NCBI RefSeq assembly: GCF_030384885.1
Contig: NZ_CP128613.1
Strand: one strand, 5' to 3'
Length of the DNA: 64,000 nt
DNA from: Escherichia coli
Lineage (GTDB): Bacteria; Pseudomonadota; Gammaproteobacteria; Enterobacterales; Enterobacteriaceae
How positions within the stretch are numbered: position 1 is the stretch's first letter; each line of letters begins with the position of its first letter. The translations under genes and the position numbers were made by a program. The notes below the pieces were generated by a model. It was given only the letters and a program-made list of their open reading frames with translations. It was not told where the DNA came from and did no database searches. This document shows, piece after piece, positions 3,501 through 18,528 of this stretch.

Positions 3501-4016
3501 TTACGGTTTATCACTCGACGAAGGGGAAGGTGCAGCGGTTTTCGGTTCAGCGTCCGCAGCTGGTTTTACCGCCGGCTCTGGCGTGGTTTCTGGCTTCTGT
3601 TGCGGCGAACTGGCCTGCGTTTGTGCAGCGGCAGGCGTTACGCCTTCATGCGCAGCTTCATTATCTTTCACCACCGGGTTATGGATGGTGTGCGCTTCAT
3701 CGCTCGCCTTTTCAGGATCGTTTGCAACGTAGGAACGCTTCATCGACTCCGCGGCCTGGCGTAGTTCATCCATCGACGCTTTCAGTTCGGGCGTCAGGTT
3801 AGTGAGGCTCGCCTTTTCAACCTTTTTCAGGCTGTCCTGAAACTCCTGGAGTTTTAACTCCTGGGTCAGTTCGTTCTGCACCGTTGTCGCCAGTGAACGC
3901 AACGCGCGAATCCAGCCAGCTACCGTTTTTACCGCCACAGGCAGTCGTTGCGGCCCCAGAACGACGAGGCCGATGATGAACACCAATAGCAGTTCGCTAA
4001 AACCGATATCAAACAC
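3501..4016 (-). CDS. tatB: Twin-arginine translocase subunit TatB
   Basis: 171 aa [26 protein letters not shown]... Confidence 0.95.
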
Positions 4017-4019
4017 GGA

Positions 4020-4289
4020 TTACACCTGCTCTTTATCGTGGCGCTTCGCGTCTTCTGTTTTAGCCTGTTCCTGATTCGTATCCGCCTGCTTATCGGCGAT
4101 AGTTTTCGCAGTAAAATCAGCATCCTGACTGGTTTTATCCTGCTTTGGTTCATCATCGCTCATTGCTTTTTTAAAGCCTTTGATCGACGCACCAAGATCG
4201 GAACCGATGGAGCCGAGCTTTTTGGTGCCAAAAAGCAGTACAACGATGACGGCAATAATCAATAACTGCCAAATACTGATACCACCCAT
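4020..4289 (-). CDS. tatA: Twin-arginine translocase subunit TatA
   Basis: ORF 4020..4331; start trimmed to Met15 ([27 protein letters not shown]...), giving the 89 aa TatA. Confidence 0.9.
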
Positions 4290-4367
4290 ACATGTTCCTC
4301 TGTGGTAGATGATGATTAAACAAGGCCGCATTATACGTTACACGGCCCGCCTTGAGCGATGAAAAAA

Positions 4368-6610
<2,243 letters not shown>

Positions 6611-6623
6611 TTCCGGTCTCCTG

Positions 6624-7379
6624 TCAGAACTTATAACCACGATGCAGCGCCACAACCCCTGCCGTCAGGTTGTAATAGTCGACACTTTCGAATCCAGCAT
6701 CCTGCATCATAGCTTTCAGGGTGTCCTGATCGGGATGCATGCGGATAGATTCAGCAAGATAACGGTAGCTGTCAGCGTCGTTCGCGACCAGTGAGCCAAT
6801 ACGCGGCAGCACATGGAAGGAGTAAGCGTCATAGGCCTTACTTAACGGCTCGATAATCGGCTTCGAGAACTCAAGCACCAGCAGTCGGCCGCCAGGTTTC
6901 AGAACGCGATACATTGAACGCAGAGCTTTATCTTTGTCAGTGACGTTACGCAGACCAAACGAAATGGTGATGCAATCAAAGGTGTTATCCGGGAACGGCA
7001 GCGCCTCAGCGTTCGCCTGAACATACTCAACGTTGCCAATCACACCAATATTACGCAGCTTCTCGCGGCCCATTTTGAGCATGGATTCATTGATATCAGC
7101 AAGGACCACTTTGCCAGTTTCACCCACCAGGCGGGAGAATTTCGCTGTCAGGTCGCCAGTACCGCCTGCCAGATCCAGCACGGTCTGCCCGCGGCGTACG
7201 CCACTGCAATCAATCGTGAAGCGTTTCCACAAACGATGTATGCCAAAAGACATCAAATCATTCATGACATCGTATTTCGATGCCACGGAATGGAAAACGT
7301 GGGCGACCATATCCGCTTTTTGTTCCTTCGCGACGGTCTGAAAACCAAAGTGCGTCGTTTCTTGTGACTTATCCACCAT
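6624..7379 (-). CDS. ubiE: Ubiquinone/menaquinone C-methyltransferase UbiE
   Basis: 251 aa [41 protein letters not shown]...; SAM-binding LDLAGGTGD motif. Confidence 0.95.
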
Positions 7380-7473
7380 CTCAATGCCTGCTCATCAAAA
7401 AATTGTTCCAGAAGTGTAACAGATTGGGCGTCGATGCCCTAGATTTCTACCCGGCTTAACTACCCCCAATGGG

Positions 7474-8901
7474 CTAGCGCGACTGCTGATTATATTCATC
7501 ATCGCGTTGATAAGCTTCATCATTCGGCTGCTCCGGTACCGACCGCAGTCGATACTCTTCATCCTGGCTCACCGCTTGTTCAGCCAAATCCGGATTAATC
7601 TCGCGTTTAATTTCTACTCCTAAACCGCGAAACGCTTCTGCCTGCGCCAGCACATTTCCGCGACCTGAAGAGAGTTTTTTCATTGCCTGGCGATAGTTGT
7701 CCTGTGCTTTGTCCAGACTTTGACCAATCGCGGACATATCATCGACAAACAAGCGCATTTTGTCGTACAACTTGCTGGCGCGATCGGCTATTTTCTGGGC
7801 GTTACGACTTTGATGCTCATAGCGCCAGAGGTTGGCGATAGTGCGCAGCGCCACCAGCAGCGTGGTCGGGCTAACCAGCATGATATTGTTTTTCAACGCT
7901 TCGGTGATCAGCTCCGGCTGGCGGTCAAGCGCCAGTAAAAAAGCGGGTTCAACGGGAATAAACATCAGCACGTAATCCAGGGTTCGCAGCCCCGGCAGCT
8001 GTTGATAATCTTTGCGTCCCAGCAAACGGATATGGTTACGCACCGACGCGATATGTTCCTGTAGCGCGCTTTCGCGGGTGTAGTCGTCTTCTGCGTTGAA
8101 ATAGCGTTCATAGGCGACCAGTGTCATTTTTGCGTCGATCACCACATCTTTGCCCTGCGGCAACCGCACGATGACATCCGGCTGCATCCGCGAGCGGGCG
8201 TCATTTTCGATGCTGACCTGGGTTTCATATTCATACCCTTCACGCAGACCGGAAGCCTCCAGCACACGCGTCAATACTACCTCGCCCCAGTTGCCCTGGG
8301 TTTTATTGTCGCCTTTCAGCGCACGCGTCAGGTTGATCGCTTCCTGGGCCATTTGCGCGTTGAGCTGCTGGAGATTGCGTATTTCGTGAGTCAGGGTATG
8401 GCGTTCTTGTGCTTCTTTACCGAAACTGTCCTGAACCTGACGACGAAAACCGTCCAGTTGTTCACGTAGTGGCGACAACAGGCTGTTCAGACTCTGACGG
8501 TTTTGCTCATCAACCCGGCGATTGCTGTGCTCGAAAATACGGTTGGCGAGGTTTTCAAACTGCTCACTGAGGCGCTGTTCGCTGTTGATCATTTGGCGAA
8601 TTTTATCGTCAGCATGTTGCTGTACGGCCTCCATTCGCGTGGTGACTTCACGCAGATCCGCCTCCAGCGAGGTGTTAATGCTTTGCAGACTGCGCACTTC
8701 ATTATTGAGTAACTCGCACTCAGCACGCCAATGTTCGCTTTGGGTAATTTGTTGTTTTGCCGCACTTAACTCCGCGATCATCTCTTCACGTTCAGCGAAT
8801 TGCTCGGCTTTTTGCTGCGCATGCTGATAACTGGCAATCAGCCAGCCAATCGCCACGCTCACCAACGCAATAACTGCGTAAACCATGATTGAGATATCCA
8901 C
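7474..8901 (-). CDS. rmuC: DNA recombination protein RmuC
   Basis: ORF 7474..8994; product trimmed to a GTG start (VDISIMVYAVIALV...) giving the 475 aa RmuC length; coiled-coil-rich N-terminus. Confidence 0.85.
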   Translation of the reverse strand: MDISIMVYAVIALVSVAIGWLIASYQHAQQKAEQFAEREEMIAELSAAKQQITQSEHWRAECELLNNEVRSLQSINTSLEADLREVTTRMEAVQQHADDKIRQMINSEQRLSEQFENLANRIFEHSNRRVDEQNRQSLNSLLSPLREQLDGFRRQVQDSFGKEAQERHTLTHEIRNLQQLNAQMAQEAINLTRALKGDNKTQGNWGEVVLTRVLEASGLREGYEYETQVSIENDARSRMQPDVIVRLPQGKDVVIDAKMTLVAYERYFNAEDDYTRESALQEHIASVRNHIRLLGRKDYQQLPGLRTLDYVLMFIPVEPAFLLALDRQPELITEALKNNIMLVSPTTLLVALRTIANLWRYEHQSRNAQKIADRASKLYDKMRLFVDDMSAIGQSLDKAQDNYRQAMKKLSSGRGNVLAQAEAFRGLGVEIKREINPDLAEQAVSQDEEYRLRSVPEQPNDEAYQRDDEYNQQSR

Positions 8902-9018
8902 AACGCCTCCAGCCTCATTACTTACCCGCACAAAATAGAATTGTGCTGTACAAACGTCCAGTTTGAAAGAAGTTTCCTGCGAGGCGCTACGCAAAACGAT
9001 CCTTAATTTTTATTATTT

Positions 9019-9056
9019 TATCCCACAATATGAGACGTAGTTTATATTGTGGGATA
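9019..9056. promoter_or_regulatory. 13-bp inverted repeat (TATCCCACAATAT / ATATTGTGGGATA) in the rmuC / IclR-gene divergent intergenic region; candidate operator
   Basis: Inverted repeat read directly from the sequence, about 60 bp upstream of the IclR-family gene start. Confidence 0.4.
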
Positions 9057-9113
9057 TATCACCTTTTCCCCACGTCATTATGTGGAACACTTCAGCAATA
9101 TCATCAGGAGAAA

Positions 9114-9884
9114 CGTATGGCAGATACCTCTTCAACCACCGCTGGCGCACAAACGTTATTACGCGGGCTGGCGGTTCTTAATGCTGTTTATAACGGCTGC
9201 CATGACCTGAAAAGTATCGGCGAGTTCACCGGCACGACCCGGAGCACAACCCATCGTTTAGTCACCGTTCTGGTGGAACAACGCTACCTGCGCCACGTCC
9301 CAACGCAGGGCTACCAACTGGGCGCCAAACTGATCGAATTCGGTGCCAGAGCGCTGGAAAGCACCTCGCTGTACGAAATTGCGCTGCCCGTTTTGCAGCG
9401 TCTGGCCCGTTACACCCTGGACACCGTGCATCTGGGGATCGTTGAAGGCGACGAAGTGCTGTATCTGGAGAAGATCAACAGTCAGCGTGGGCTGGAAATG
9501 CGCTCACGCCCAGGCCATCGCATGCCACTGGCAATCACCGGCATCGGCAAGGCATTGATCCTCAACCGAACAGAAGAAGAGTGGCGCACGCTGTTTAAGA
9601 CCTGTGGTGATGAAACAAAACTGGGCACATTTATTCAGAACATGCGTCGTTATGCCGCCAGTGGTTTTGCTTTTGATCTGGAAGAGAACGAGCCGACTAT
9701 CCGTTGCGTTGCAGCGCCGGTTTACAACGCCCGGGATGAAATTGTGGCGGCTATTTCTGTCGCCAGTACCACTACGTATATGTCACTGGCGCGTCTGGAA
9801 GAACTGGCACCTTACGTCAAATCCTGTGCAGAAGAGATATCCGCTGAACTGGGCTGGGGTAAGCACGTCCGCAAAAATAAATAA
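9114..9884 (+). CDS. IclR/KdgR-family transcriptional regulator
   Basis: ORF 9030..9884; start trimmed to MADTSSTTAGAQTLLRGLAVLNAV (RBS AGGAG upstream); N-terminal HTH plus IclR-type effector domain (about 256 aa). Confidence 0.8.
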   Translation, partial: RMADTSSTTAGAQTLLRGLAVLNAVYNGCHDLKSIGEFTGTTRSTTHRLVTVLVEQRYLRHVPTQGYQLGAKLIEFGARALESTSLYEIALPVLQRLARYTLDTVHLGIVEGDEVLYLEKINSQRGLEMRSRPGHRMPLAITGIGKALILNRTEEEWRTLFKTCGDETKLGTFIQNMRRYAASGFAFDLEENEPTIRCVAAPVYNARDEIVAAISVASTTTYMSLARLEELAPYVKSCAEEISAELGWGKHVRKNK

Positions 9885-9907
9885 ACCATGACTAAAGGAA
9901 ACGGCTA

Positions 9908-10912
9908 ATGTCGGGAAACACCTCATTTATTGCCCTGGACTGGGGAACGTCATCGCTTCGGGCATGGCGTTTTGGCGACTCACCAAATCCACAAGAAAAA
10001 CGTGAATTCCCGTGGGGGATCATGAAATTACCCTCCCAGGCAGCAACACGTGAGGACGCTTTCCACGATACGTTTTTACGTGTCTGCGGCGACTGGCTGG
10101 CACAATCCCCATGCCCGATTCTGGCTTGCGGCATGATCGGCAGTGCGCAAGGGTGGCAACCCGCAGCTTATTTACCTTGCCCGGTCACTCTCGAGGGTCT
10201 GGCAAAGCAGTTGACGCCTGTTATCTACCAGCAGCAGACAATGCTGCACATCATTCCCGGCGTGATTAAAGAAGGTGAAATGCCCGAAGTGATGCGTGGC
10301 GAAGAGACACAAATCTTCGGTGCTATCTCGATGGAACCGGCCCTGCAAAACGCGCTCCGCCAGGGTATGCCTGTGCTGATTGGCTTACCTGGCACACATG
10401 CGAAATGGGCGGTAGTTGAAAACAACACCATTACCGATTTTCGAACCTTTATGACAGGCGAGTTATTTGATGTTTTATCCCGCCATTCGATTCTCGGTGC
10501 CACCATGCGTTCGGGAGATGAACCGCACTGGGATGCCTTCGCCCACGGGCTGACAGCGGCACAAGAGCATCATCAGACCGGATTATTATCGACGCTGTTT
10601 TCGACCCGTTCGCGCCTGCTGACCAGTAATCTTACGCCGTCCTCACAGGGGGATTACCTTTCAGGATTACTGATAGGCCATGAATTATGCGGTCTGGCAT
10701 CCAGTTTGCTACGTGATTTACCCGCCACAACACCGATCGCCTTAATCGGTAGCGCCACTCTGAACAGCCGCTATTCACAAGCATTCAGCCACGTTTTTCC
10801 CGACAGACAGCTACACGCCATTCCTAATGCCACTGAACAGGGGTTATGGCGAATCGCCCACGCTGCCGGGCTACTCTCCACCAACGCCAGGGAATGTACT
10901 CATGCCATTTAA
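9908..10912 (+). CDS. 2-dehydro-3-deoxygalactonokinase (DgoK)-family sugar-acid kinase
   Basis: 334 aa; motifs ALDWGTSSLRAW, MRGEETQIFGA, GTHAKW...ITDFRTFMTGELF align with DgoK hallmark motifs. Confidence 0.8.
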   Translation: MSGNTSFIALDWGTSSLRAWRFGDSPNPQEKREFPWGIMKLPSQAATREDAFHDTFLRVCGDWLAQSPCPILACGMIGSAQGWQPAAYLPCPVTLEGLAKQLTPVIYQQQTMLHIIPGVIKEGEMPEVMRGEETQIFGAISMEPALQNALRQGMPVLIGLPGTHAKWAVVENNTITDFRTFMTGELFDVLSRHSILGATMRSGDEPHWDAFAHGLTAAQEHHQTGLLSTLFSTRSRLLTSNLTPSSQGDYLSGLLIGHELCGLASSLLRDLPATTPIALIGSATLNSRYSQAFSHVFPDRQLHAIPNATEQGLWRIAHAAGLLSTNARECTHAI

Positions 10913-11531
10913 TACGCTTTTGCAAAAAACCGGGTTAGTCGCCATTTTACGCGGCGTGAAACCGGATGAGATTGTCGCCATCGGTGAAAAGCTGTATGCC
11001 GCTGGATTTCGCCTGATTGAGATTCCCATGAACTCGCCGGAGCCGTTGCAAAGTATCAGTTTACTGCGCGACGCCCTGCCTAAGGACTGCCTGGTCGGAG
11101 CCGGAACGGTGCTTTCGGTGGAGCAAGTCGTCGCGGTTAAAGAGGCTGGAGGCCAGATTATCGTAATGCCGCATTGCGATACTGCGGTGATCCGTCGTGC
11201 CCGTGCGCTGGGTATGTATTGTGCGCCTGGCGTCGCTACGCCCACCGAAGCTTTTGCTGCCATTGAACATGGCGCCAATGCCATCAAGCTGTTCCCGGCT
11301 GAACAAATTACGCCTGAAGTCACCAAAGCCTGGCGTGCGGTTATTCCACAATCCGTTCCGATGTTACCGGTTGGCGGTATCACTCCAGACACAATGGCGC
11401 GTTATCTGAGCCACGGCGCAAACGGCTTTGGCCTCGGTTCTGCGCTATATCGCCCCGGCATGACGCCAGAGCAAGTCTATGAAAATGCAGTACTGTTTAT
11501 GAACGCATGGAACAATTTAAATAGCAAATAA
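10902..11531 (+). CDS. KDPGal/KDPG aldolase (DgoA/Eda-family)
   Basis: ORF 10827..11531; start trimmed to MPFNTLLQKTGLVAILRGV at 10902, overlapping the kinase stop (translational coupling); strong resemblance to DgoA. Confidence 0.8.
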   Translation: MPFNTLLQKTGLVAILRGVKPDEIVAIGEKLYAAGFRLIEIPMNSPEPLQSISLLRDALPKDCLVGAGTVLSVEQVVAVKEAGGQIIVMPHCDTAVIRRARALGMYCAPGVATPTEAFAAIEHGANAIKLFPAEQITPEVTKAWRAVIPQSVPMLPVGGITPDTMARYLSHGANGFGLGSALYRPGMTPEQVYENAVLFMNAWNNLNSK

Positions 11532-11555
11532 CTGATAAATAAGGATATAAAAGCA

Positions 11556-12530
11556 ATGATAAAACATCTTACCTTACCGAAAAAAATGGCTGCAATGGTA
11601 CTTCTTGCCGGCGCTGCCCTCAGCACTGCGCCTGTGCAGGCGGCCTCCTGGCCAACCAAACAGATCGAGTTAGTCGTACCCTACGCGGCCGGAGGCGGTA
11701 CGGATCTGGTTGCCCGTGCCTTTGCTGATGCCGCCAAAAACCATTTGCCCGTCAGCATCGGGGTTATCAATAAACCTGGCGGTGGCGGCGCTATCGGCCT
11801 GAGTGAAATCGCCGCTGCCCGCCCTAACGGTTACAAAATGGGTTTAGGCACGGTTGAACTGACCACCCTTCCCAGTCTCGGAATGGTGCGTTTTAAAACC
11901 AGCGACTTTAAACCCATTGCCCGTCTGAATGCGGATCCTGCGGCTATCACCGTCCGTGCCGATGCACCGTGGAATAGCTATGAAGAATTTATGACTTACG
12001 CCAAAGCGAATCCCGGAAAAGTACGCATTGGTAACTCAGGCACCGGAGCAATCTGGCATCTGGCGGCAGCTGCACTGGAAGACAAAACGGGCGTGAAGTT
12101 TTCTCATGTCCCATATGACGGCGCAGCCCCTGCCATTACAGGCCTGTTAGGCGGGCATATTGAAGCGGTTTCCGTAAGCCCAGGTGAAGTTATCAATCAT
12201 GTGAAAGGCGGCAAGCTGAAGACACTGGTAGTGATGGCGGATGAACGTATGAAAACCATGCCTGACGTCCCGACGTTAAAAGAGAAAGGCGTTGATCTCT
12301 CCATCGGCACCTGGCGCGGCCTGATTGTGTCGCAAAAAACGCCGCAGGATGTGGTTGATGTTCTGGCTAAGGCCGCAAAAGAGACGGCTGAAGAGCCTGC
12401 ATTCCAGGATGCTCTGCAAAAGTTGAATCTCAACTATGCATGGCTTGATGGTGCCAGCTTCCAGACCCAAATCAACGAACAGGAAAAGTACTTTGACGAG
12501 TTACTAACTCGGCTGGGCTTGAAAAAATAA
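11556..12530 (+). CDS. tctC: Tripartite tricarboxylate transporter substrate-binding protein (TctC/Bug family), periplasmic
   Basis: 324 aa with N-terminal signal peptide MIKHLTLPKKMAAMVLLAGAALSTAPVQA; TctC-like fold motifs. Confidence 0.8.
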   Translation: MIKHLTLPKKMAAMVLLAGAALSTAPVQAASWPTKQIELVVPYAAGGGTDLVARAFADAAKNHLPVSIGVINKPGGGGAIGLSEIAAARPNGYKMGLGTVELTTLPSLGMVRFKTSDFKPIARLNADPAAITVRADAPWNSYEEFMTYAKANPGKVRIGNSGTGAIWHLAAAALEDKTGVKFSHVPYDGAAPAITGLLGGHIEAVSVSPGEVINHVKGGKLKTLVVMADERMKTMPDVPTLKEKGVDLSIGTWRGLIVSQKTPQDVVDVLAKAAKETAEEPAFQDALQKLNLNYAWLDGASFQTQINEQEKYFDELLTRLGLKK

Positions 12531-12546
12531 TCCCGAGGTACGGTCG

Positions 12547-13053
12547 ATGAACACAAAACAGTCTGTTGCTCAACTCGCCGTACCGCACCGCAAGCGCTTT
12601 TCATCCACTGTGGTGGTGGCGCTGTTACTTTGTGTGGTTGCTGGCGCGGTGATAATTAATGCCGCTGATTTTCCAGCAACTGCCATTGAAACGGATCCCG
12701 GTGCAAGTGCCTTCCCTACTTTCTATGCCTGCGCTCTGATTGTGCTCGCTGTCTTACTGGTGATACGCGATCTTTTGCTGGCAAAACCAGTCCCTTGCGC
12801 CAACGCACAGGAAAAACCGGCATTCAGGAAAACGGCAACGGGAATTGCGGCAACCGCGTTTTATATTGTGGCGATGAGCTACTGCGGTTATCTCATTACT
12901 ACTCCTGTTTTCCTCATCGTCATTATGACGTTGATGGGCTACAGGCGATGGGTACTCACACCGGGTATTGCGCTGCTGTTAACGGCAATCCTCTGGTTGC
13001 TGTTTGTCGAAGCGTTACAGGTGCCATTGCCTGTCGGCACATTTTTCGAATAA
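12547..13053 (+). CDS. tctB: Tripartite tricarboxylate transporter small membrane subunit (TctB family)
   Basis: 168 aa, four hydrophobic segments; position between tctC and tctA. Confidence 0.7.
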   Translation: MNTKQSVAQLAVPHRKRFSSTVVVALLLCVVAGAVIINAADFPATAIETDPGASAFPTFYACALIVLAVLLVIRDLLLAKPVPCANAQEKPAFRKTATGIAATAFYIVAMSYCGYLITTPVFLIVIMTLMGYRRWVLTPGIALLLTAILWLLFVEALQVPLPVGTFFE

Positions 13054-13065
13054 CAGGGGCCTGCA

Positions 13066-14556
13066 ATGTTTGAAAGTGAACTTTTAACTCAGGGGTTTTC
13101 GACATTACTCAGTAATCCTCAGGCGCTGCTGTTTGCCACGTTTGGAGTGATACTGGGTATTATGATTGGCGCTCTGCCTGGCCTGACAGCGACCATGGGT
13201 GTGGCGATTTTGCTGCCTTTCACCTACGGCATGGAGCCTGTTTCTGGCTTGTTGATGATTTGCGGTGTCTTTTTTGGTGGTGTGTATGGTGGTTCTATCA
13301 CCGCAATTTTGCTCAAAATTCCCGGTACGCCTGCCGCCGCTGCCACCGCCATTGACGGTTATGAGTTAACGAAGCAGGGAAAAGCCGGGCTGGCATTAAG
13401 TGCCGCCACGTTCTCTTCTTTTAGCGGTGGAACGCTCAGCATTATCGTATTGATGTTTCTCTCTCCGGTACTTGCCAGTTGGGCGTTGAAATTTAGTGCC
13501 TCGGAGTCCTTCGCCCTGGCAACCTTCGGACTAAGTATTATTGCCAGTATTTCCGGTGAGTCACTGATTAAAGGGCTGATTGCCGGGGTTGGCGGATTAC
13601 TGATCGCAACGATAGGCCTCGATCCGATGGGCGGTTTTCCACGCTTTACGGGCGGGTTTGTGGAACTGATGAATGTGCCATTTATCCCGGTGATGATTGG
13701 TCTGTTTGCTGCTTCAGAAGCGTTCCGTTCTATGGAACAAAATCAGCATATTCGTCAGAGCGCGAACGTGGCTATCGGCAGTCTGTTACTGCCCTGGCAA
13801 ACGCTACGCCGCATCGCATTAACCATTTTGCGCTCATCAGGATTAGGGGTTTTTATCGGCATGATCCCCGGTGCGGGGGCAGATATTGCAGCTTTTGTTG
13901 CCTATAACGAAACTCGTCGTTTCAGTAAGACGCCTGAAAACTTTGGTAAGGGTGAGATTAAGGCGGTGGCCTCCTGTGAGGCAGGCGCGAATGGCTGCAC
14001 CGGTGGCGCATTGTTACCTATGCTGACGTTGGGGATCCCAGGCGATGCGGTAACTGCCATCATGCTGGGCGCGTTAACGTTACAAGGGATGCAGCCAGGC
14101 CCACTGATGTTTACCGACCACGGCGATATGGTTTATACGCTGTTTGTCGGCATGATCTTTTGTTACTTCATGCTGCTAGTTCTTGGACTGCTCTCTTTGA
14201 AAGTCATCGGTAACGTGGTGAAGATCCCCGGCAATATTCTCACGCCGATGATCCTCGCACTTTGTGTGGTCGGGACTTATGCGTTGAACAATAGCCTGTT
14301 TGATGTTGGCATTATGCTGATTGCAGGCGTGGTGGGCTATTTCATGCAAAAAGGGGGGTATCCGGCATCACCCGTAGTGCTGGCATTGATTATGGGGCCA
14401 ATGGCGGAAAGTAATTTTCGCCGTGCGCTGTCGCTTTCTGGTGGGTCACTCGACTTTCTGTATACCCGACCGATAACCCTGGCATTGCTGACACTGGCAG
14501 CCTTTACGCTACTGACGCCAATAATACGCAAAATTATGCGCTTACGGCGTCAGTAA
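13066..14556 (+). CDS. tctA: Tripartite tricarboxylate transporter large permease (TctA family)
   Basis: 496 aa polytopic membrane protein; TctA-like glycine-rich hydrophobic segments. Confidence 0.85.
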   Translation: MFESELLTQGFSTLLSNPQALLFATFGVILGIMIGALPGLTATMGVAILLPFTYGMEPVSGLLMICGVFFGGVYGGSITAILLKIPGTPAAAATAIDGYELTKQGKAGLALSAATFSSFSGGTLSIIVLMFLSPVLASWALKFSASESFALATFGLSIIASISGESLIKGLIAGVGGLLIATIGLDPMGGFPRFTGGFVELMNVPFIPVMIGLFAASEAFRSMEQNQHIRQSANVAIGSLLLPWQTLRRIALTILRSSGLGVFIGMIPGAGADIAAFVAYNETRRFSKTPENFGKGEIKAVASCEAGANGCTGGALLPMLTLGIPGDAVTAIMLGALTLQGMQPGPLMFTDHGDMVYTLFVGMIFCYFMLLVLGLLSLKVIGNVVKIPGNILTPMILALCVVGTYALNNSLFDVGIMLIAGVVGYFMQKGGYPASPVVLALIMGPMAESNFRRALSLSGGSLDFLYTRPITLALLTLAAFTLLTPIIRKIMRLRRQ

Positions 14557-14610
14557 TTGATATCGCTCCCCGACGTTGGGGAGTATGAGACTGATGACAA
14601 ACGCTAAATT

Positions 14611-14710
14611 GCCTGATGCGCTGCGCTTATCAGGCCTACCACAGAAATGCAATATATTGAATTTGCATGCTTTTGTAGGCCGGGTAAGGCGATCACGCCG
14701 CATCCGGCAT
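14611..14710. repeat. REP/BIME cluster (two inverted REP units: GCCTGATGCGCTGCGCTTATCAGGCCTAC ... GTAGGCCGGGTAAGGCGATCACGCCGCATCCGGCA)
   Basis: Characteristic enterobacterial REP palindromes read from the sequence. Confidence 0.6.
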
Positions 14711-14741
14711 GAACAAAGCACACGTTAACAACAATCGGAAT

Positions 14742-14768
14742 GCTCCCCTAAGCCAGGGAGCTTTTTTT
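14742..14768 (+). terminator. Hairpin (GCTCCC..GGGAGC) followed by T7 run; rho-independent terminator between the tct operon and the 3' end of udp
   Basis: Stem-loop plus U-tract on the + strand, immediately abutting the udp stop. Confidence 0.4.
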
Positions 14769-15531
14769 ATTTCAGCAGACGACGCGCCGCTTCCACCACG
14801 ATTTTCACCGCCTGGCTTTCGGTTTGTTTCATCGTCTCAGCATTCGGGATCTCTTGTTGGGTACGATTGACGATAACGCCCGCCACCATACCGGCACGAA
14901 GGCCCTGGCTTGCACACATGGTCAGCAGGGTTGCAGATTCCATTTCATAGTTCATTACGCCCATCGCCTGCCACTCTTCCATAGAACCTTTAAAGTGACG
15001 GACTACGCGACCAGAGTAAGTATCGTAACGTTCCTGACCCGGGTAGAAGGTATCAGAAGAAGCCGTCACACCAACGTGAGTGGTGGCACCAATTGACTTC
15101 GCCGCTTCAACCAGCGCGGTCGTACATTCGAAATCTGCGACAGCCGGGAACTCCAGCGGAGCGAAGTGCAGGCTCGCGCCATCCAGACGAACAGACGCCG
15201 TGGTCACCAGCACATCGCCGACATTGATATGCGGCTGGATAGCGCCCGTTGTACCGATACGCAGGAAGGTGCGAATGCCCAGCTGTGCCAGCTCTTCAAC
15301 CGCAATAGAGGTAGACGGGCCGCCGATACCGGTAGAGCAGACGATAACAGGTTTACCATCCAGCTCTGCACGCCAGGTGGTGAATTCGCGGTGAGATGCC
15401 AGCTTAACCGGCTTATCCATCAGCGCGGCGATCTTTTCCACACGATCCGGGTCGCCAGGGACGATGGCAAGCGTAGCCCCTTGTAAATCGTTTTTAGTGA
15501 GGCCGAGATGAAAAACATCAGACTTGGACAT
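14767..15531 (-). CDS. udp: Uridine phosphorylase
   Basis: ORF 14767..15537; start trimmed to [31 protein letters not shown] (253 aa). Confidence 0.95.
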
Positions 15532-15603
15532 ATACAACTCCTCTGTGAATCGGTTTAGTCAGAAGAAGCAAAAAGACACTTTACCGAAGGGTTTAACATT
15601 TTT

Positions 15604-15619
15604 TCGTGACACTCATCAC
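15604..15619. promoter_or_regulatory. CRP-like site (GTGA-N6-TCAC) in the udp promoter region, promoter-proximal
   Basis: cGTGAcactcaTCACc; spaced about 54 bp from the second site, consistent with the known tandem CRP arrangement of the udp promoter. Confidence 0.5.
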
Positions 15620-15657
15620 CTTGATGCAAATGCGTTGCATAAATTTACCCAGCAAAA

Positions 15658-15673
15658 GTGATGCGAATCACAT
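15658..15673. promoter_or_regulatory. CRP-like site in the udp promoter region, promoter-distal
   Basis: Reverse complement reads aTGTGAttcgcaTCAC. Confidence 0.5.
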
Positions 15674-15792
15674 AAATCACTCTTCATTCTGCATGACTGC
15701 ATAAAAGATGAGCCGATTCAGGCAATGTGATTTGTTGCATGCTGACTATAGTTAACATTGCGCAACATTTTTATAAGGGTACGGAGAATACC

Positions 15793-16605
15793 ATGGCAAC
15801 AACACAACAATCTGGATTTGCACCTGCTGCATCACCTCTCGCTTCGACCATCGTTCAGACCCCGGATGACGCGATTGTAGCAGGCATCACCTCTATCCCT
15901 TCACAAGGGGATAACATGCCTGCTTACCATGCCAGACCAAAGCAGAGCGATGGCCTACTACCAGTGGTCATTGTAGTGCAGGAAATTTTTGGCGTGCATG
16001 AACATATCCGCGATATTTGTCGCCGTCTGGCGCTGGAGGGGTATCTGGCTATCGCACCTGAACTTTACTTCCGCGAAGGCGATCCGAATGATTTTGCCGA
16101 TATCCCTACGCTGCTTAGCGGTCTGGTAGCAAAAGTGCCTGACTCGCAGGTGCTGGCCGATCTCGATCATGTCGCCAGTTGGGCGTCACGCAACGGCGGC
16201 GATGTTCATCGCTTAATGATCACCGGATTTTGCTGGGGTGGACGTATCACCTGGCTATATGCTGCGCATAACCCGCAACTGAAAGCGGCGGTGGCATGGT
16301 ACGGCAAACTGACAGGCGATAAGTCGCTGAATTCACCGAAACAACCTGTTGATATCGCAACCGATCTTAACGCGCCGGTTCTCGGCTTATATGGTGGTCA
16401 GGATAACAGCATTCCGCAGGAGAGCGTTGAAACCATGCGCCAGGCGCTGCGGGCTGCTAATGCGAAAGCAGAGATTATCGTCTACCCGGATGCCGGGCAT
16501 GCATTCAACGCCGATTATCGCCCGAGCTATCATGCTGAGTCGGCGAAAGATGGCTGGCAGCGTATGCTGGAGTGGTTTAAGCGGTATGGTGGGAAACGGA
16601 ATTAG
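15793..16605 (+). CDS. ysgA: Dienelactone hydrolase-family protein YsgA (DlhH)
   Basis: ORF 15727..16605; start trimmed to MATTQQSGFAPAASPLAS...; alpha/beta hydrolase motif GFCWGG. Confidence 0.85.
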   Translation: MATTQQSGFAPAASPLASTIVQTPDDAIVAGITSIPSQGDNMPAYHARPKQSDGLLPVVIVVQEIFGVHEHIRDICRRLALEGYLAIAPELYFREGDPNDFADIPTLLSGLVAKVPDSQVLADLDHVASWASRNGGDVHRLMITGFCWGGRITWLYAAHNPQLKAAVAWYGKLTGDKSLNSPKQPVDIATDLNAPVLGLYGGQDNSIPQESVETMRQALRAANAKAEIIVYPDAGHAFNADYRPSYHAESAKDGWQRMLEWFKRYGGKRN

Positions 16606-16996
16606 TTTCCTCTTATTCTATATTTGAGATGGTGAGTGAACGAATGCGTTTTGCTGCCATCTCTGTCCCCCAAAAAATAATCAGTATGAATTGATTGGAG
16701 AGCACGACTCCGCTATTTGACCTTAAGAAAGTCGGCAAGTCATAGTCATAAATGAGTCTCTTCACTGGCAGACACCTTAAAGATTTACCATCAACTCCCA
16801 TTCTCAAACAAACATTAATTATTATCAACACATTCACATTAATTATAAATTACCTCAGACCTTCCTGATAAAAAGATATTAAAGTGAAACATTTTGTTTT
16901 TCACATTTTAGTTCATCCCTTTTAGGCGTAAATAAAGGTAAAAAATAACAATACTATTTTTCTTTCACAAAAAAATTAACAAAAGGTTTTTCAAGG

Positions 16997-18145
16997 ATGA
17001 GTGATATTATCTACCTGACCATAACCGGAGAACAACACGGATGTATTTCCTCTCGTTGTGGAACGAGCACATCAATAGGTAATCGCTGGCAGATTGGTCA
17101 TGAAGATGAAATCTTCGCATTCTCGCTCTCTAATAGTATTACGAATACAGGAAAAGGGTCACATTTGCATGGCCTTAGTTTCTGTAAGTTGATTGACAAA
17201 AGCTCCCCGTTACTTATTAACGCTATTAACAATAACGAGCAGTTGTTCATGGAGTTTGACTTCTATCGGATCAATAGATTTGGTCGATGGGAGAAATATT
17301 ACAACATTCAACTCCGCGGCGCGCTCTTATCAGCAATCAATCACCTGTTTACGGAGAACAATCTGGATACAGAAACCATCACTGTCAGTTATGAATATAT
17401 ACTCTCCAGGCATCTGATTGCTAATACTGAATTTAGTTATTTGGCATTTCCCGATAACTACAATCGTCTGTTTATACCACGGCCAAAAACTAAAGATGAT
17501 AATGGCCTCAAAACACTCAATAGTAAAGCTGTTGGCAGACTGCTTGCTGCTGGCGGCATATACAATGGGAATATCGAAGGATTCAGGGAAACAGCAAACA
17601 AGTTGGGGGGAGATGCACCTGCTGGTTACGATCAAGTTATGGATAACAAAGGGTTACTCATCGCTGGTGCTTCAATAGTTGCTGGAGCAGTTCTGGGGAG
17701 AATGAGACTCCCTGATTTGGAATCACTTGAGCATTTCGGAGCCAGAGGAGCAGTATCAGGAAGACCATTTAATCCCGACCTTGCCGGTGGTCCAATAGAA
17801 AATCTGACGACAGATGGCGTAACAATCAACAGGGAAGGTATCGCTATTGTTGAAAAACACATAGCCAGATTTGGTCATGACCCTGTAAATGAAGTGATGA
17901 TCAATAGACTGAAAGACATTGAGAAAGGAAAAATCCCCCCAGAACAAGTAGATCTTAACTTCTATACTCATGAATGTCGGGAATATCAGCGTTACTGTAA
18001 TCTTGGTTGGGAAACAGGACAACCTGATGGTGACGCAGGCTATGCACTCTGGAATCATACGCATACTGCTACTCTAGAAGATTATAAACTTAAGGGAGAA
18101 CTTAATGACTTATACCACCAGGACGCACTTGACTATGATAACTGA
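16997..18145 (+). CDS. Hcp (T6SS tube protein TssD) N-terminal domain fused to a C-terminal extension of unknown function, Hcp-ET-like; not associated with a T6SS gene cluster
   Basis: 382 aa; residues 1-155 carry the Hcp hallmark ...HGLSFCKLIDKSSPLLINAINNNEQLFMEFDFYRI...; residues about 156-382 are an extension with no Hcp counterpart; RBS AAGGA upstream; AT-rich. Confidence 0.75.
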   Translation: MSDIIYLTITGEQHGCISSRCGTSTSIGNRWQIGHEDEIFAFSLSNSITNTGKGSHLHGLSFCKLIDKSSPLLINAINNNEQLFMEFDFYRINRFGRWEKYYNIQLRGALLSAINHLFTENNLDTETITVSYEYILSRHLIANTEFSYLAFPDNYNRLFIPRPKTKDDNGLKTLNSKAVGRLLAAGGIYNGNIEGFRETANKLGGDAPAGYDQVMDNKGLLIAGASIVAGAVLGRMRLPDLESLEHFGARGAVSGRPFNPDLAGGPIENLTTDGVTINREGIAIVEKHIARFGHDPVNEVMINRLKDIEKGKIPPEQVDLNFYTHECREYQRYCNLGWETGQPDGDAGYALWNHTHTATLEDYKLKGELNDLYHQDALDYDN

Positions 18146-18380
18146 AACTGAAATTAACATACTGAAAGTTATGGCTGAGAAAGATATAAACTGGAACTGG
18201 ATGAATCTCGATCGCACACTATCTATAAGGCAAATTCCAGGATTCGGTAATGTTGTTAACATTGTTAACAAATTAGCTAACGAGGGTTTGGTTATTATTG
18301 AGGATAGCGGACATAAGTCTATGCCTCACTACCACGTTACTGATAAGGGATACAATCTCGTGAAAAGTGAGAATAAATAA
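18105..18380 (+). CDS. Small protein overlapping the 3' end of the Hcp-fusion gene; candidate cognate immunity protein (alternative start at 18135)
   Basis: 91 aa ORF with GGGAG RBS; overlaps the upstream stop, typical of toxin-immunity pairs; no recognisable family. Confidence 0.5.
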   Translation: MTYTTRTHLTMITETEINILKVMAEKDINWNWMNLDRTLSIRQIPGFGNVVNIVNKLANEGLVIIEDSGHKSMPHYHVTDKGYNLVKSENK

Positions 18381-18528
18381 CGTAGCGTTGATTACTGAAC
18401 AAATCGCTCAGGATTATATTTTGCGAAAAAAATGATTCGGTTATTTCTGTGTCTGAACGGCCGCAGATAGCAAAATGGCTTCCGGTGATGGAAGCCATCA
18501 GATTATTGGCAAAGTGCGTGTTGTTCAT

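Follow-up and report, generated by a model that had tools for sequence, protein, structure and literature searches.

A transporter, kinase and aldolase operon between rmuC and udp of Escherichia coli, possibly serving the catabolism of a pre-formed 2-keto-3-deoxy-hexonate

Introduction

Which compound is taken up by a six-gene operon that separates rmuC and udp in part of the Escherichia coli population, and what becomes of it in the cell? The locus lies in a 64,000-nucleotide stretch of E. coli contig NZ_CP128613.1 (assembly GCF_030384885.1), hereafter called the window. An earlier note, based on the sequence alone, had proposed that the operon imports a ready-made 2-keto-3-deoxy acid, which is then phosphorylated and cleaved. 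The operon is real, conserved and already annotated, and all its parts belong to known families.

Extent and gene content of the insert

The flanking genes, as annotated by RefSeq, are:

7474-8901, minus strand, rmuC
14767-15531, minus strand, udp

In K-12 DH1, these genes are neighbours with a spacer of 140 bp (K-12 annotation), of which 43 bp are cleanly swapped, in the junction alignment, for a 5.8 kb insert on the plus strand. Its limits, window positions 8997-14768, were set by BLASTN junctions against K-12 DH1 and UPEC 536. The six-gene, same-strand cluster described earlier is thus confirmed, as is the overlap of the kinase and aldolase genes at 10902-10912, for which RefSeq annotates the same ends:

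9117-9884, plus strand, IclR-family transcriptional regulator, 255 aa (PF01614, E 3.6e-37; PF09339, E 9e-8; RefSeq start)
9908-10912, plus strand, DGOK-family sugar-acid kinase, 334 aa (PF05035, E 1.6e-89)
10902-11531, plus strand, DgoA-type class I aldolase, 209 aa (NF006600), its start overlapping the kinase stop by 11 nt
11556-12530, plus strand, TctC/Bug-type periplasmic substrate-binding protein, 324 aa (PF03401, E 2.5e-55)
12547-13053, plus strand, TctB small membrane subunit, 168 aa (PF07331, E 1.5e-20)
13066-14556, plus strand, TctA large permease subunit, 496 aa (PF01970, E 1.3e-151)

No sign of a mobile island (integrase, tRNA or direct-repeat boundaries, deviant base composition) was found: the junctions show no flanking repeats in the alignment with K-12 and 536, and the GC content of the insert (50-56%) is similar to that of its flanks. 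Downstream of tctA, the following elements were read from the sequence:

14566-14583, plus strand, hairpin CTCCCC-GACGTT-GGGGAG, directly 3' of tctA (compared with 536)
14611-14709, no strand assigned, BIME made of two inverted REP elements (14611-14639 and 14676-14709)
14742-14769, plus strand, intrinsic terminator-like hairpin GCTCCC..GGGAGC followed by a T run, at the operon end and abutting the udp stop

The cluster had been described as bounded by REP/BIME repeats, which holds at the udp end and fails on the rmuC side, where no REP is present and a 12-bp perfect inverted repeat (9019-9056) is found instead. The REP stretch (14585-14742) has a median of 5 matching places per E. coli genome, and the BIME stretch gives weak Rfam matches to naRNA4 and ES036, below thresholds. 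In the junction alignment, these repeats are missing from the same cluster of UPEC 536, in which the terminator is intact (GCTCCCCGAAGTTGGGGAGC, then T7), the hairpin at 14566-14583 corresponding to its left half. The BIME was inserted in the lineage of the window strain.

Regulator and candidate operator

The regulator combines an N-terminal HTH_IclR domain (PF09339) and a C-terminal IclR effector domain (PF01614), which places it in the IclR family. Its best NCBIfam matches, BhcR (141 bits) and KdgR (126 bits), both fall far under the cut-offs, that of the KdgR equivalog NF011671 being 275 bits. The gene most likely starts at ATG 9117, which is preceded by AGGAGA and is the RefSeq start; the longer ORF from 9030 probably does not begin at the real start. 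Upstream of the regulator gene lies:

9019-9056, no strand assigned, candidate operator, perfect 12-bp inverted repeat TATCCCACAATA-N14-TATTGTGGGATA

UPEC 536 has the same two arms around an altered spacer, and the region upstream of the regulator gene contains related TCCCA..TGGGA / ATATTGTGG motifs in Phytobacter, Enterobacter and Brenneria. The palindrome is probably bound by the IclR-family regulator as its operator, and is unlike the KdgR box.

Kinase and aldolase

The kinase matches the DGOK family PF05035 over the full length of the model (positions 1-281 of 281), in agreement with the DgoK-like assignment first made. It is only 34% identical to the characterised core E. coli DgoK and matches the solved structures of DgoK homologues PDB 3r1x (E 1e-37) and 3t69 (E 1e-35). 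The search of solved structures gave no liganded homologue from which a preference for KDGal over KDG could be read.

The resemblance of the aldolase to DgoA was likewise borne out, with 322.9 bits against a cut-off of 207 for NF006600 (KDPGal aldolase); the Eda models give at most 135 bits, under their cut-offs. It shares 46% identity with E. coli DgoA and 29% with Eda, and alignment with the former shows that the equivalents of the Schiff-base Lys126, the catalytic Glu37 and Arg14 are kept. At the positions linked to stereoselectivity, it is of the DgoA type, with LVAIL (beta-1, A11/I12) and V (beta-7, V154), where Eda has P19/V20 and T161. Residues I12 and V154 have been shown experimentally to set KDPGal versus KDPG stereoselectivity (PMC4915726). 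By these residues, the aldolase bears the catalytic and stereochemical signature of a KDPGal enzyme.

Transporter

TctC, TctB and TctA are encoded together, with PF03401, PF07331 and PF01970 on three adjacent genes, so that the uptake system is indeed a tripartite tricarboxylate transporter (TTT), as had been claimed. The binding protein has a signal-peptide-like N-terminus, read from the sequence, ending VQA|A at residue 29. Among solved structures, it matches PDB 4x9t (E 6e-100) and the Vibrio TTT-C 25hk (E 2e-64). G24, G183 and T225 are among the contact residues of TTT-C that it retains (8 of 11), and it has an NSGTGAIWHL loop that is invariant in its clade and missing from TTT-C.

The family name alone would suggest a transporter of citrate or another tricarboxylate with unrelated neighbour genes, since the founding Salmonella TctCBA system transports citrate. 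However, transporter, kinase and aldolase co-occur across phyla, and in the island they are tightly spaced within one operon, with the 11-nt overlap. Moreover, the binding protein has a Gly in place of the Pro through which BugD and MatC contact the backbone of the ligand, and E. coli B REL606, famously unable to use citrate aerobically, carries the cluster intact. A citrate transporter, therefore, has hardly any likelihood left.

Distribution and selection

Across E. coli, the cluster is present in 1,454 of 5,426 complete genomes (27%), counted as those covering at least 80% of the kinase-to-binding-protein segment, and absent from 73%. The cluster is no rarity among E. coli, laboratory B strains included: carriers include BL21, REL606, Nissle, ST131 and UPEC 536, and K-12 is without it. 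E. whittamii carries it at the same site, where island and flanks have diverged to the same degree, which likewise speaks against a mobile island. None of the six genes is interrupted or changes in length between the window strain, UPEC 536 and E. whittamii, lineages that differ by 4-7% in DNA. Their dN/dS ranges from 0.02 to 0.25 (up to 0.44 for tctB, on few changes), and their dS resembles that of the flanking core genes.

The window genome also holds a complete core dgoRKADT, with DgoD encoded about 155 kb from the island. The dgoRKAD genes are found in 93% of E. coli genomes, 405 genomes having no megablast match to them. Because the kinase and aldolase of the island are intact, of equal length and under purifying selection, they are not decaying redundant copies. 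The same evidence bears on the cluster as a whole, which could be seen as a functionless remnant of an older pathway in the course of being lost: it is missing from most genomes and, unlike its relatives in other bacteria, includes neither dehydratase nor reductase. With six intact ORFs of constant length, the low dN/dS values and the number of genomes carrying it, this is very improbable.

Related loci and competing substrates

Eighty-one loci, centred on relatives of the binding protein at 48-99% identity, were compared. A PF01081 aldolase is present in 71 and a kinase in about 70, the latter from three unrelated lineages (DGOK, 47; a second DGOK clade, 9; PfkB, 16). What is conserved as a unit is therefore transporter, kinase and aldolase. 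DGOK-type kinases are always paired with I/V-type aldolases, the I12/V154 signature being kept in 57 of 57 cases, and PfkB kinases always with the T154 type (V12 with a single exception).

The absence of a dehydratase, noted at the outset, was confirmed for all ORFs in 8997-14768, and 75 of the 81 loci have no enolase-superfamily or Edd/IlvD-type gene within 10 kb, nor is any other recurrent neighbour dehydratase-like. Only four loci have a true orthologue of DgoD, at 60-63% identity to that of E. coli; DGOK-aldolase-DgoD-TctCBA operons occur in Bordetella genomosp. 4, Kerstersia, Martelella and Sinirhodobacter.

Such operons bring in a first competing explanation, high-affinity uptake of D-galactonate, in which the TTT would import the acid, the DgoR-induced core DgoD would dehydrate it, and the operon would add kinase and aldolase capacity. 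As dgoD is part of the complete core dgoRKADT of the window genome, the dehydratase could be supplied in trans. The closest relatives of the kinase (44-47%) and aldolase (59-61%) outside Enterobacterales belong to the DgoD-containing operons of Kerstersia and Bordetella, a kinship in sequence that supports galacto-type chemistry, and D-galactonate uptake has been predicted for a similar TTT-IclR-dgoK locus (PMC5507952). Nevertheless, the operon would then lack a step of its pathway, and its kinase and aldolase would duplicate the co-induced core DgoK and DgoA, yet the two island genes show purifying selection in three lineages; the rarity of nearby dehydratases in the related loci also speaks against it. 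The DgoD-linked binding proteins, furthermore, differ at a ligand-contact residue. The equivalent of F19, which is essential for binding in Vibrio TTT-C (PMC13390454), is residue 43, a Y or F in E. coli and in kinase-only loci and a T in the DgoD-linked proteins (only four sequences), and position 167 is mostly Y instead of W in these four. We consider D-galactonate unlikely as the substrate.

The second explanation is a gluco-series or uronate substrate, the module being the tail of a DEH-type pathway (4-deoxy-5-keto-uronate to KDG, to KDPG, then cleavage). The reductase-less E. coli copy would take up KDG, or DEH/DKI would be handled by host enzymes, and the kinase and aldolase, although named after galactonate, would act on KDG/KDPG or accept either epimer. 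In 32 proteobacterial loci, the module comes with an orthologue of the DEH reductase A1-R (an SDR, 58-99% identity), an enzyme that makes KDG and not KDGal. The module-adjacent SDR of Rhodoferax matches the Sphingomonas DEH reductases A1-R/A1-R' over its full length at E 6.5e-106, the next-best SDR being at E-34. In Stutzerimonas, an IclR-DGOK-aldolase-TctCBA-SDR operon has the SDR as its final enzyme gene, and in Kluyvera the same SDR stands beside a PL17-like alginate lyase. In Bacilli, this transporter is accompanied by KDG-type kinases of the PfkB family and by T-type aldolases. The predicted pocket residues of the binding protein, common to these locus types, are nearly identical in reductase-paired loci to those of E. 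coli, and Vibrio TTT-C, its nearest liganded relative, binds unsaturated alginate products. In addition, the selectivity of E. coli DgoA for KDPGal is only about 200-fold (values quoted in PMC4915726).

The I12/V154 signature of every DGOK-linked aldolase argues, on the other side, for KDPGal-type stereochemistry. The island has no reductase, hence no complete DEH module (an A1-R-type SDR or equivalent together with transporter, kinase and aldolase), and the Kluyvera GntR-SSF-SDR segment, the only A1-R-like query, has no DNA-level match in any complete E. coli genome. For KDG, moreover, E. coli is already equipped with KdgT, KdgK and Eda. We consider a gluco-series or uronate substrate unlikely as well.

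Proposed function

With about an even chance of being right, we propose a self-contained catabolic operon for a 2-keto-3-deoxy-hexonate that enters the cell already formed. The operon would probably be repressed by its own IclR-family regulator, sitting on the 9019-9056 palindrome and probably released by the acid or its phosphate, the direction of regulation being inferred. The periplasmic TctC-type protein would bind the acid, and TctB and TctA would transport it through the inner membrane. The DGOK-family kinase would phosphorylate it at C6, and the DgoA-type Schiff-base aldolase would split the phosphorylated product into pyruvate and D-glyceraldehyde-3-phosphate.

The enzyme signature points to 2-keto-3-deoxy-D-galactonate (KDGal) as the likeliest substrate. 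Counting against it, no abundant source of free D-KDGal in nature is known to us. KDG or related compounds, or both epimers in place of KDGal alone, are a live alternative, because the module is paired elsewhere with a DEH reductase. According to a review of KDGal catabolism that draws on work in K-12 (PMC11219438), E. coli is not induced by external keto-deoxy-hexonates to take them up; a separate set of regulator, transporter, kinase and aldolase would fill this gap.

Of the readings considered, the one with the most support is that a 2-keto-3-deoxy acid is taken up already formed and needs no dehydratase. This central idea of the earlier note is favoured by the scarcity of dehydratases in the related loci, the three kinase lineages and a pocket that differs from that of the four DgoD-linked relatives; the complete dgoRKADT of the genome leaves some likelihood to D-galactonate.

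A bolder view, to which we assign a low probability, is that the kinase and aldolase of the module do not serve galactonate and belong to a widespread, undescribed TTT/A1-R-type DEH reductase/DGOK/DgoA-like route by which soil, freshwater and gut bacteria use 4-deoxy-5-keto-uronates and 2-keto-3-deoxy-hexonates, with KDG-active or epimer-promiscuous enzymes. In the gut or urinary tract, the E. coli copy would then scavenge KDG, KDGal, keto-deoxy-hexonates from the host or DEH-type products of cross-feeding. If so, current database names would give the wrong stereochemistry, and a second activity would have to be added to the DGOK family.

Comparison with known systems

The operon can be compared with the E. 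coli dgoRKADT operon for D-galactonate catabolism (the De Ley-Doudoroff tail), in which a DGOK-family kinase gene is likewise followed by an overlapping DgoA-type aldolase gene, with the same catalytic and stereochemical residues and the same expected products (pyruvate and glyceraldehyde-3-phosphate). It differs in having a TTT instead of the MFS transporter DgoT, an IclR regulator instead of the GntR-type DgoR, and no DgoD; identities are only 34% (kinase) and 46% (aldolase), and the window genome has both systems. With the E. coli KDG regulon (KdgR, KdgT, KdgK, Eda), the operon would share its logic, namely the uptake of a ready-made 2-keto-3-deoxy-hexonate, phosphorylation, cleavage and an IclR-family repressor. 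The regulon genes are, however, scattered, with the KdgT permease, a PfkB kinase and a T161-type aldolase, whereas the island is a single operon with a binding-protein-dependent TTT, a DGOK kinase and a V154-type aldolase.

The DGOK-aldolase-DgoD-TctCBA operons of Bordetella and Kerstersia, and the Salinivirga GalR-TTT-dgoK locus, for which galactonate is predicted (PMC5507952), draw on the same transporter, kinase, aldolase and regulator families as the island. Operons of the Bordetella/Kerstersia type also encode a dehydratase, which the island does not, and a 2-hydroxyacid dehydrogenase. The alginate DEH pathway (the TTT of Vibrio sp. C42, PDB 25HK; A1-R, then KDG kinase and KDPG aldolase) has a homologous binding protein, but the E. 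coli island includes neither lyase nor reductase, and the kinase and aldolase of the island carry the galacto-type signature. Finally, the citrate transporters Salmonella TctCBA and Bordetella BctCBA have the same tripartite architecture and C-B-A gene order; they are encoded with a two-component regulator, whereas the island transporter is accompanied by an IclR regulator and sugar-acid enzymes.

Gene Content and Boundaries of the Locus

Six plus-strand genes lie between rmuC and udp. The earlier note had read them as encoding an IclR regulator, DgoK-like and DgoA-like enzymes, and a TctCBA transporter, and Pfam or NCBIfam matches to all six products support this. On these matches, the family assignments are unambiguous.

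7474-8901, minus strand: rmuC (RefSeq)
9117-9884, plus strand: IclR regulator gene (IclR_C, E 3.6e-37, plus HTH_IclR)
9908-10912, plus strand: kinase gene (PF05035 DGOK, full length, E 1.6e-89)
10902-11531, plus strand: aldolase gene (NCBIfam NF006600 KDPGal aldolase, 323 bits against a cut-off of 207)
11556-12530, plus strand: periplasmic binding protein gene (TctC, E 2.5e-55)
12547-13053, plus strand: small membrane subunit gene (TctB, E 1.5e-20)
13066-14556, plus strand: large permease gene (TctA, E 1.3e-151)
14767-15531, minus strand: udp (RefSeq)

As the intergenic gaps measure 23, -11, 24, 16, and 12 nt, the six genes can be regarded as one operon, and the negative value corresponds to the kinase/aldolase overlap (10902-10912) already noticed on first reading. 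RefSeq gives the same six genes, under the same names, in E. coli 2013C-4282, which is 100% identical to the window. The regulator had initially been started at 9030, but this long ORF is probably wrong, RefSeq and the AGGAGA-N5-ATG context both favouring 9117.

The adjacency of rmuC and udp in K-12 given in the earlier note was borne out by strain DH1, where a 140-bp spacer separates them; in the junction alignment, 43 bp of this spacer are replaced by 8997-14768 of the window. This alignment revealed no flanking direct repeats, integrase, or tRNA at the junctions, and the GC content of the insert resembles that of its flanks. A mobile island was ruled out, given the clean junctions, the normal GC content, and the presence of the cluster at the same site, with the same divergence, in E. 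whittamii.

The cluster had also been described as bounded by REP/BIME repeats, which is true of the udp side (14611-14639 and 14676-14709) but not of the rmuC side, where an inverted repeat is found instead. The REP/BIME stretch has a median of five matches per genome. It is absent from the UPEC 536 copy of the cluster, in which tctA is followed by one hairpin with a T-run, a single, undisturbed terminator. In the window, the BIME (two inverted REPs) is inserted into this tctA/udp terminator hairpin (14566-14769) and splits it, so that half of it remains at 14566-14583 and a hairpin with a T run has re-formed at 14742-14769.

The best curated NCBIfam matches of the regulator are BhcR and KdgR, both far below their cut-offs. 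The rmuC-side repeat is a perfect 12-bp inverted repeat, TATCCCACAATA-N14-TATTGTGGGATA, at 9019-9056, and is a candidate operator. Its arms are unchanged in UPEC 536, where the spacer is mutated, and Phytobacter, Enterobacter, and Brenneria have related motifs (TCCCA..TGGGA / ATATTGTGG) ahead of their regulator genes. Upstream of the operon, a consensus scan of the plus strand found no sigma-70 site, and a relaxed scan yielded 8-of-12 matches at most and no convincing sigma-70 promoter; therefore, no promoter is named. Rfam scanning returned only REP-derived matches, all sub-threshold, and no riboswitch or leader.

Distribution, Age, and Selection

The kinase-to-binding-protein segment is present, at a coverage of at least 80%, in 1,454 of 5,426 complete E. 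coli genomes; nearly all of these contain a single copy, which is chromosomal in all cases but one. Carriers include ST131, ST95 strain IHE3034, UPEC 536, APEC O1, Nissle 1917, and ATCC 8739, together with the B strains REL606, C41(DE3), and BAP1 (the latter two being BL21(DE3) derivatives); the operon is missing from K-12. With this distribution, the cluster is neither rare nor confined to phylogroup B2.

E. whittamii carries the cluster in an unbroken alignment through the flanks (93.3% identity), and in Phytobacter it also adjoins udp. All six genes are intact and of equal lengths in the window strain, UPEC 536, and E. whittamii. Across these three, dN/dS is 0.02 for tctA, 0.02-0.07 for the binding protein, 0.04-0.05 for the aldolase, 0.07-0.09 for the regulator, 0.12-0.25 for the kinase, and 0.25-0.44 for tctB (on about 10 changes). 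The synonymous divergence of the cluster genes is like that of rmuC, udp, and ubiE. Taken together, the intact genes, low dN/dS, and flank-like synonymous divergence indicate a cluster that is old in Escherichia, kept by selection, and lost from most lineages, rather than a recent import; intact genes and dN/dS values also exclude a decaying remnant.

Several observations concern the surrounding region. In REL606 (L099, 38280-50000), IclR, TctB, Udp, and YsgA have the same protein sequences as in UPEC 536 (L002), and UbiJ and UbiB the same as in K-12, a pattern which suggests that the B lineage acquired a B2-like segment with the operon by recombination, a breakpoint being near rmuC/ubiE. The window strain's allele of the whole region 4000-16600 is unusually divergent and rare: allele identity across rmuC, the operon, and udp is ~95% with K-12 as well as with B2 strains, and 93% with E. 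whittamii, and records matching at 99% or more number two for the whole of 8900-14800, 12 for the kinase-to-binding-protein segment, and 14 for the rmuC segment. In Phytobacter massiliensis (L004/L051, 5546-12801), ubiE and udp flank the operon and rmuC is missing from the interval, so that in this genus rmuC is elsewhere or absent. A second variable slot, ysgA-metE, is located ~2 kb from the operon (window 16600-18400, GC 34-44%). It holds a 382-aa ORF (16997-18145; 'tssD (Hcp), frameshifted' in RefSeq), then a small hypothetical gene; it is empty in K-12, and contains a cysteine hydrolase and DUF2877 in UPEC 536 and REL606, with fdrA and carbamate kinase in addition in REL606.

Kinase and Aldolase

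The relevant compounds are 2-keto-3-deoxy-D-galactonate (KDGal), its C4 epimer KDG, and their phosphates, KDPGal and KDPG. The aldolase shares 46% identity with E. coli DgoA and 29% with Eda, and retains R14, E37, and the Schiff-base K126 in the alignment. Where Eda has P-V (strand beta-1) and T161, this aldolase has A-I and, at the V154 position, V; mutagenesis has shown that these sites control KDPGal versus KDPG stereoselectivity (PMC4915726). Nevertheless, the KDPGal selectivity of E. coli DgoA is only about 200-fold, that of Eda being about 40,000-fold (values quoted in PMC4915726). The kinase is only 34% identical to DgoK of the core D-galactonate operon, dgoRKADT.

Judged by identity, the closest enzyme relatives are those of operons that include DgoD, the D-galactonate dehydratase (kinase 44-47%, aldolase 59-61%), the values for reductase-linked operons being 37-40% and 49-60%. 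Owing to this relationship and to the enzyme signature, D-KDGal is the best guess for the substrate.

Related Loci in Other Bacteria

Eighty loci around relatives of the binding protein (48-99% identity) were collected, one genome per species, and all ORFs were clustered; counts are out of 81, the window included.

Occurrence of module components in the 81 loci
TctA: 75
TctB: 74
PF01081 aldolase: 71
IclR regulator: 69
DGOK kinase: 47
PfkB kinase: 16
Second DGOK clade: 9

Kinase type and aldolase signature are coupled: a DGOK-type kinase is always paired with an I12/V154 aldolase (57 cases), and a PfkB kinase always with a T154-type aldolase, in which position 12 is V in every case except one (15 cases, all Bacilli). 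Exactly the same arrangement of six genes is found in Buttiauxella, two Klebsiella species, Phytobacter, Brenneria, and Candidatus Dactylopiibacterium.

Dehydratases are scarce. In four of the 81 loci (Bordetella genomosp. 4, Kerstersia, Martelella, and Sinirhodobacter), the operon itself includes a true DgoD orthologue, 60-63% identical to the E. coli protein; in 75, tblastn searches with DgoD and Edd gave no match within 10 kb. ORF clustering, sequence reading, and NCBIfam searches on a few candidates revealed no other recurrent dehydratase-like neighbour, the direct queries being DgoD and Edd. Given this scarcity and the co-occurrence of the other components, the transporter, kinase, and aldolase constitute the conserved functional unit, and clusters that start from the aldonate form a distinct minority.

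Some loci carry additional genes. An SMP30/gluconolactonase-like protein is encoded directly 3' of tctA in 19 loci (e.g., L008, 12184-13098). In Enterobacter hormaechei (L006), Citrobacter amalonaticus (L018), and Lelliottia (L021), an iron-type alcohol dehydrogenase and a distant second DGOK form a divergent pair, and a second IclR gene follows tctA. The second DGOK clade is the sole kinase in clostridial versions of the module. In Defluviitalea phaphyphila, TTT-DGOK2 lies on a contig too short to relate to the alginate locus, and the paper is silent on it.

Binding Protein and Imported Compound

The transporter belongs to the tripartite tricarboxylate transporters (TTT). A citrate role is very unlikely: the genomic context argues against it, and the cluster is carried by REL606, whose phenotype is Cit-.

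The best structural relative of the binding protein is PDB 4x9t (E 6e-100), deposited as an uncharacterised protein and presumably a ligand-free structural-genomics entry. The second is 25HK (E 2e-64), TTT-C of Vibrio sp. C42, a protein whose ligands are unsaturated products of alginate degradation and which does not bind citrate, glucuronate, or malate (PMC13390454). The E. coli protein keeps 8 of the 11 TTT-C contact residues, including G24, G183, and T225, which set TTT-C apart from binders of small acids (PMC13390454), and has the canonical Bug-type NSGTGAIWHL loop that TTT-C is without. The 39 predicted pocket positions are near-identical across all context types, with one clear exception. 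The equivalent of TTT-C F19, a residue whose replacement by alanine abolishes binding (PMC13390454), is T in the four DgoD-linked proteins and Y/F in the E. coli, kinase-only, reductase-linked, and PfkB-linked ones; position 167 is mostly Y in the DgoD-linked proteins, instead of W. An aromatic platform would be better suited to a sugar acid in cyclic hemiketal form than to a linear aldonate, the comparison involving four DgoD-linked sequences.

These features bear on the possibility that the operon imports D-galactonate, which the core DgoD would dehydrate. A full dgoRKADT is present in the genome of the window, about 155 kb away, dgoRKAD occurs in 5,020 of the 5,426 genomes, and a similar locus has been predicted to be a galactonate importer (PMC5507952). 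However, this would leave a kinase and an aldolase under selection redundant and conflicts with the pocket difference of the DgoD-linked binding proteins, so that we consider it unlikely. We give roughly even chances to the operon importing a pre-formed 2-keto-3-deoxy-hexonate, which would be fed directly to the kinase, the product then passing to the aldolase with no dehydratase step. Under this reading, every gene of the operon is needed. Growth of K-12 on 2-oxo-3-deoxygalactonate was reportedly obtained by Cooper in 1978 only after regulatory mutations. According to a review citing work in K-12, E. coli does not respond to external keto-deoxy-hexonates by inducing their uptake (PMC11219438).

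Association with DEH Reductases

An SDR gene accompanies the operon in 32 proteobacterial loci, either in divergent orientation upstream of it or at its end; the kinase of these loci is always a DGOK and the aldolase always of the I/V type. The Rhodoferax SDR matches the Sphingomonas reductases A1-R and A1-R', which act on DEH (a 4-deoxy-5-keto-uronate), over all 258 residues (E 6.5e-106; next-best SDR, E-34). The SDR of clostridial loci differs from this A1-R-like one. In Stutzerimonas, the SDR gene follows tctA in the same operon, and is itself followed by a GlcG/HbpS-like protein gene (L097, 9001-10228). In Kluyvera, the same SDR occurs with a PL17-like alginate lyase, a GntR regulator, and a sodium:solute symporter, a context that supports its being a real DEH reductase; in Kluyvera ascorbata (L096, 4138-9777) these form a compact enterobacterial locus, whose GntR-SSF-SDR segment (6226-9777) has no DNA-level match in any complete E. 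coli genome. The E. coli island contains no reductase gene.

The C4 configuration of KDG is opposite to that of KDGal. The product of DEH reductase is KDG (PMC8778563), and the pairing of this reductase with KDPGal-type enzymes is stereochemically inconsistent. By our own reasoning from Fischer projections, none of the common 4-deoxy-5-keto-uronates released by lyases would yield D-KDGal on reduction, DEH giving KDG and DKI giving L-KDGal. Consequently, either the DgoA-like and DGOK enzymes accept KDG and KDPG, or the reductase acts on another substrate here. That the substrate is KDG or a DEH-like compound, the 'galactonate' names being wrong or too narrow, seems rather improbable. L-KDGal, which would originate from direct reduction of pectin-derived DKI, was ruled out on similar stereochemical grounds, as it has a KDG-like C4 and would release L-glyceraldehyde-3-phosphate. 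The family of Sphingomonas A1-K and A1-A is not stated in the papers on them. Solving the stereochemical puzzle of the reductase in the operon's relatives may expose a mis-annotated enzyme activity and would correct many automatic annotations.

Significance and Comparison with Known Systems

Every component belongs to a known family, already named by annotation pipelines. Full-text literature searches turned up no experiments on the E. coli cluster, the sole mention being tctA among the differentially expressed genes of one atypical EPEC strain. Almost all of E. coli metabolism was worked out in K-12, and REL606 is the ancestor of the long-term evolution experiment. A nutrient-uptake operon conserved in about a quarter of the species, and intact in ExPEC, the probiotic Nissle 1917, expression hosts such as BL21, and REL606, has been missed by K-12-centred biochemistry. 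If its substrate is a keto-deoxy sugar acid, it would represent a dedicated route for metabolites usually deemed purely intracellular intermediates, and would point to cross-feeding on the pathway intermediates of other microbes. It is easy to test within a few weeks, in isogenic B and K-12 backgrounds for which deletion strains exist.

Among known systems, the logic of the island would be that of the KDG regulon (KdgR, KdgT, KdgK, and Eda), but here one operon combines a DgoK/DgoA pair with a TTT transporter and an IclR regulator of its own. The lack of a dehydratase, an MFS permease, and a GntR regulator sets it apart from the dgo operon type, and the lack of a reductase from DEH modules.
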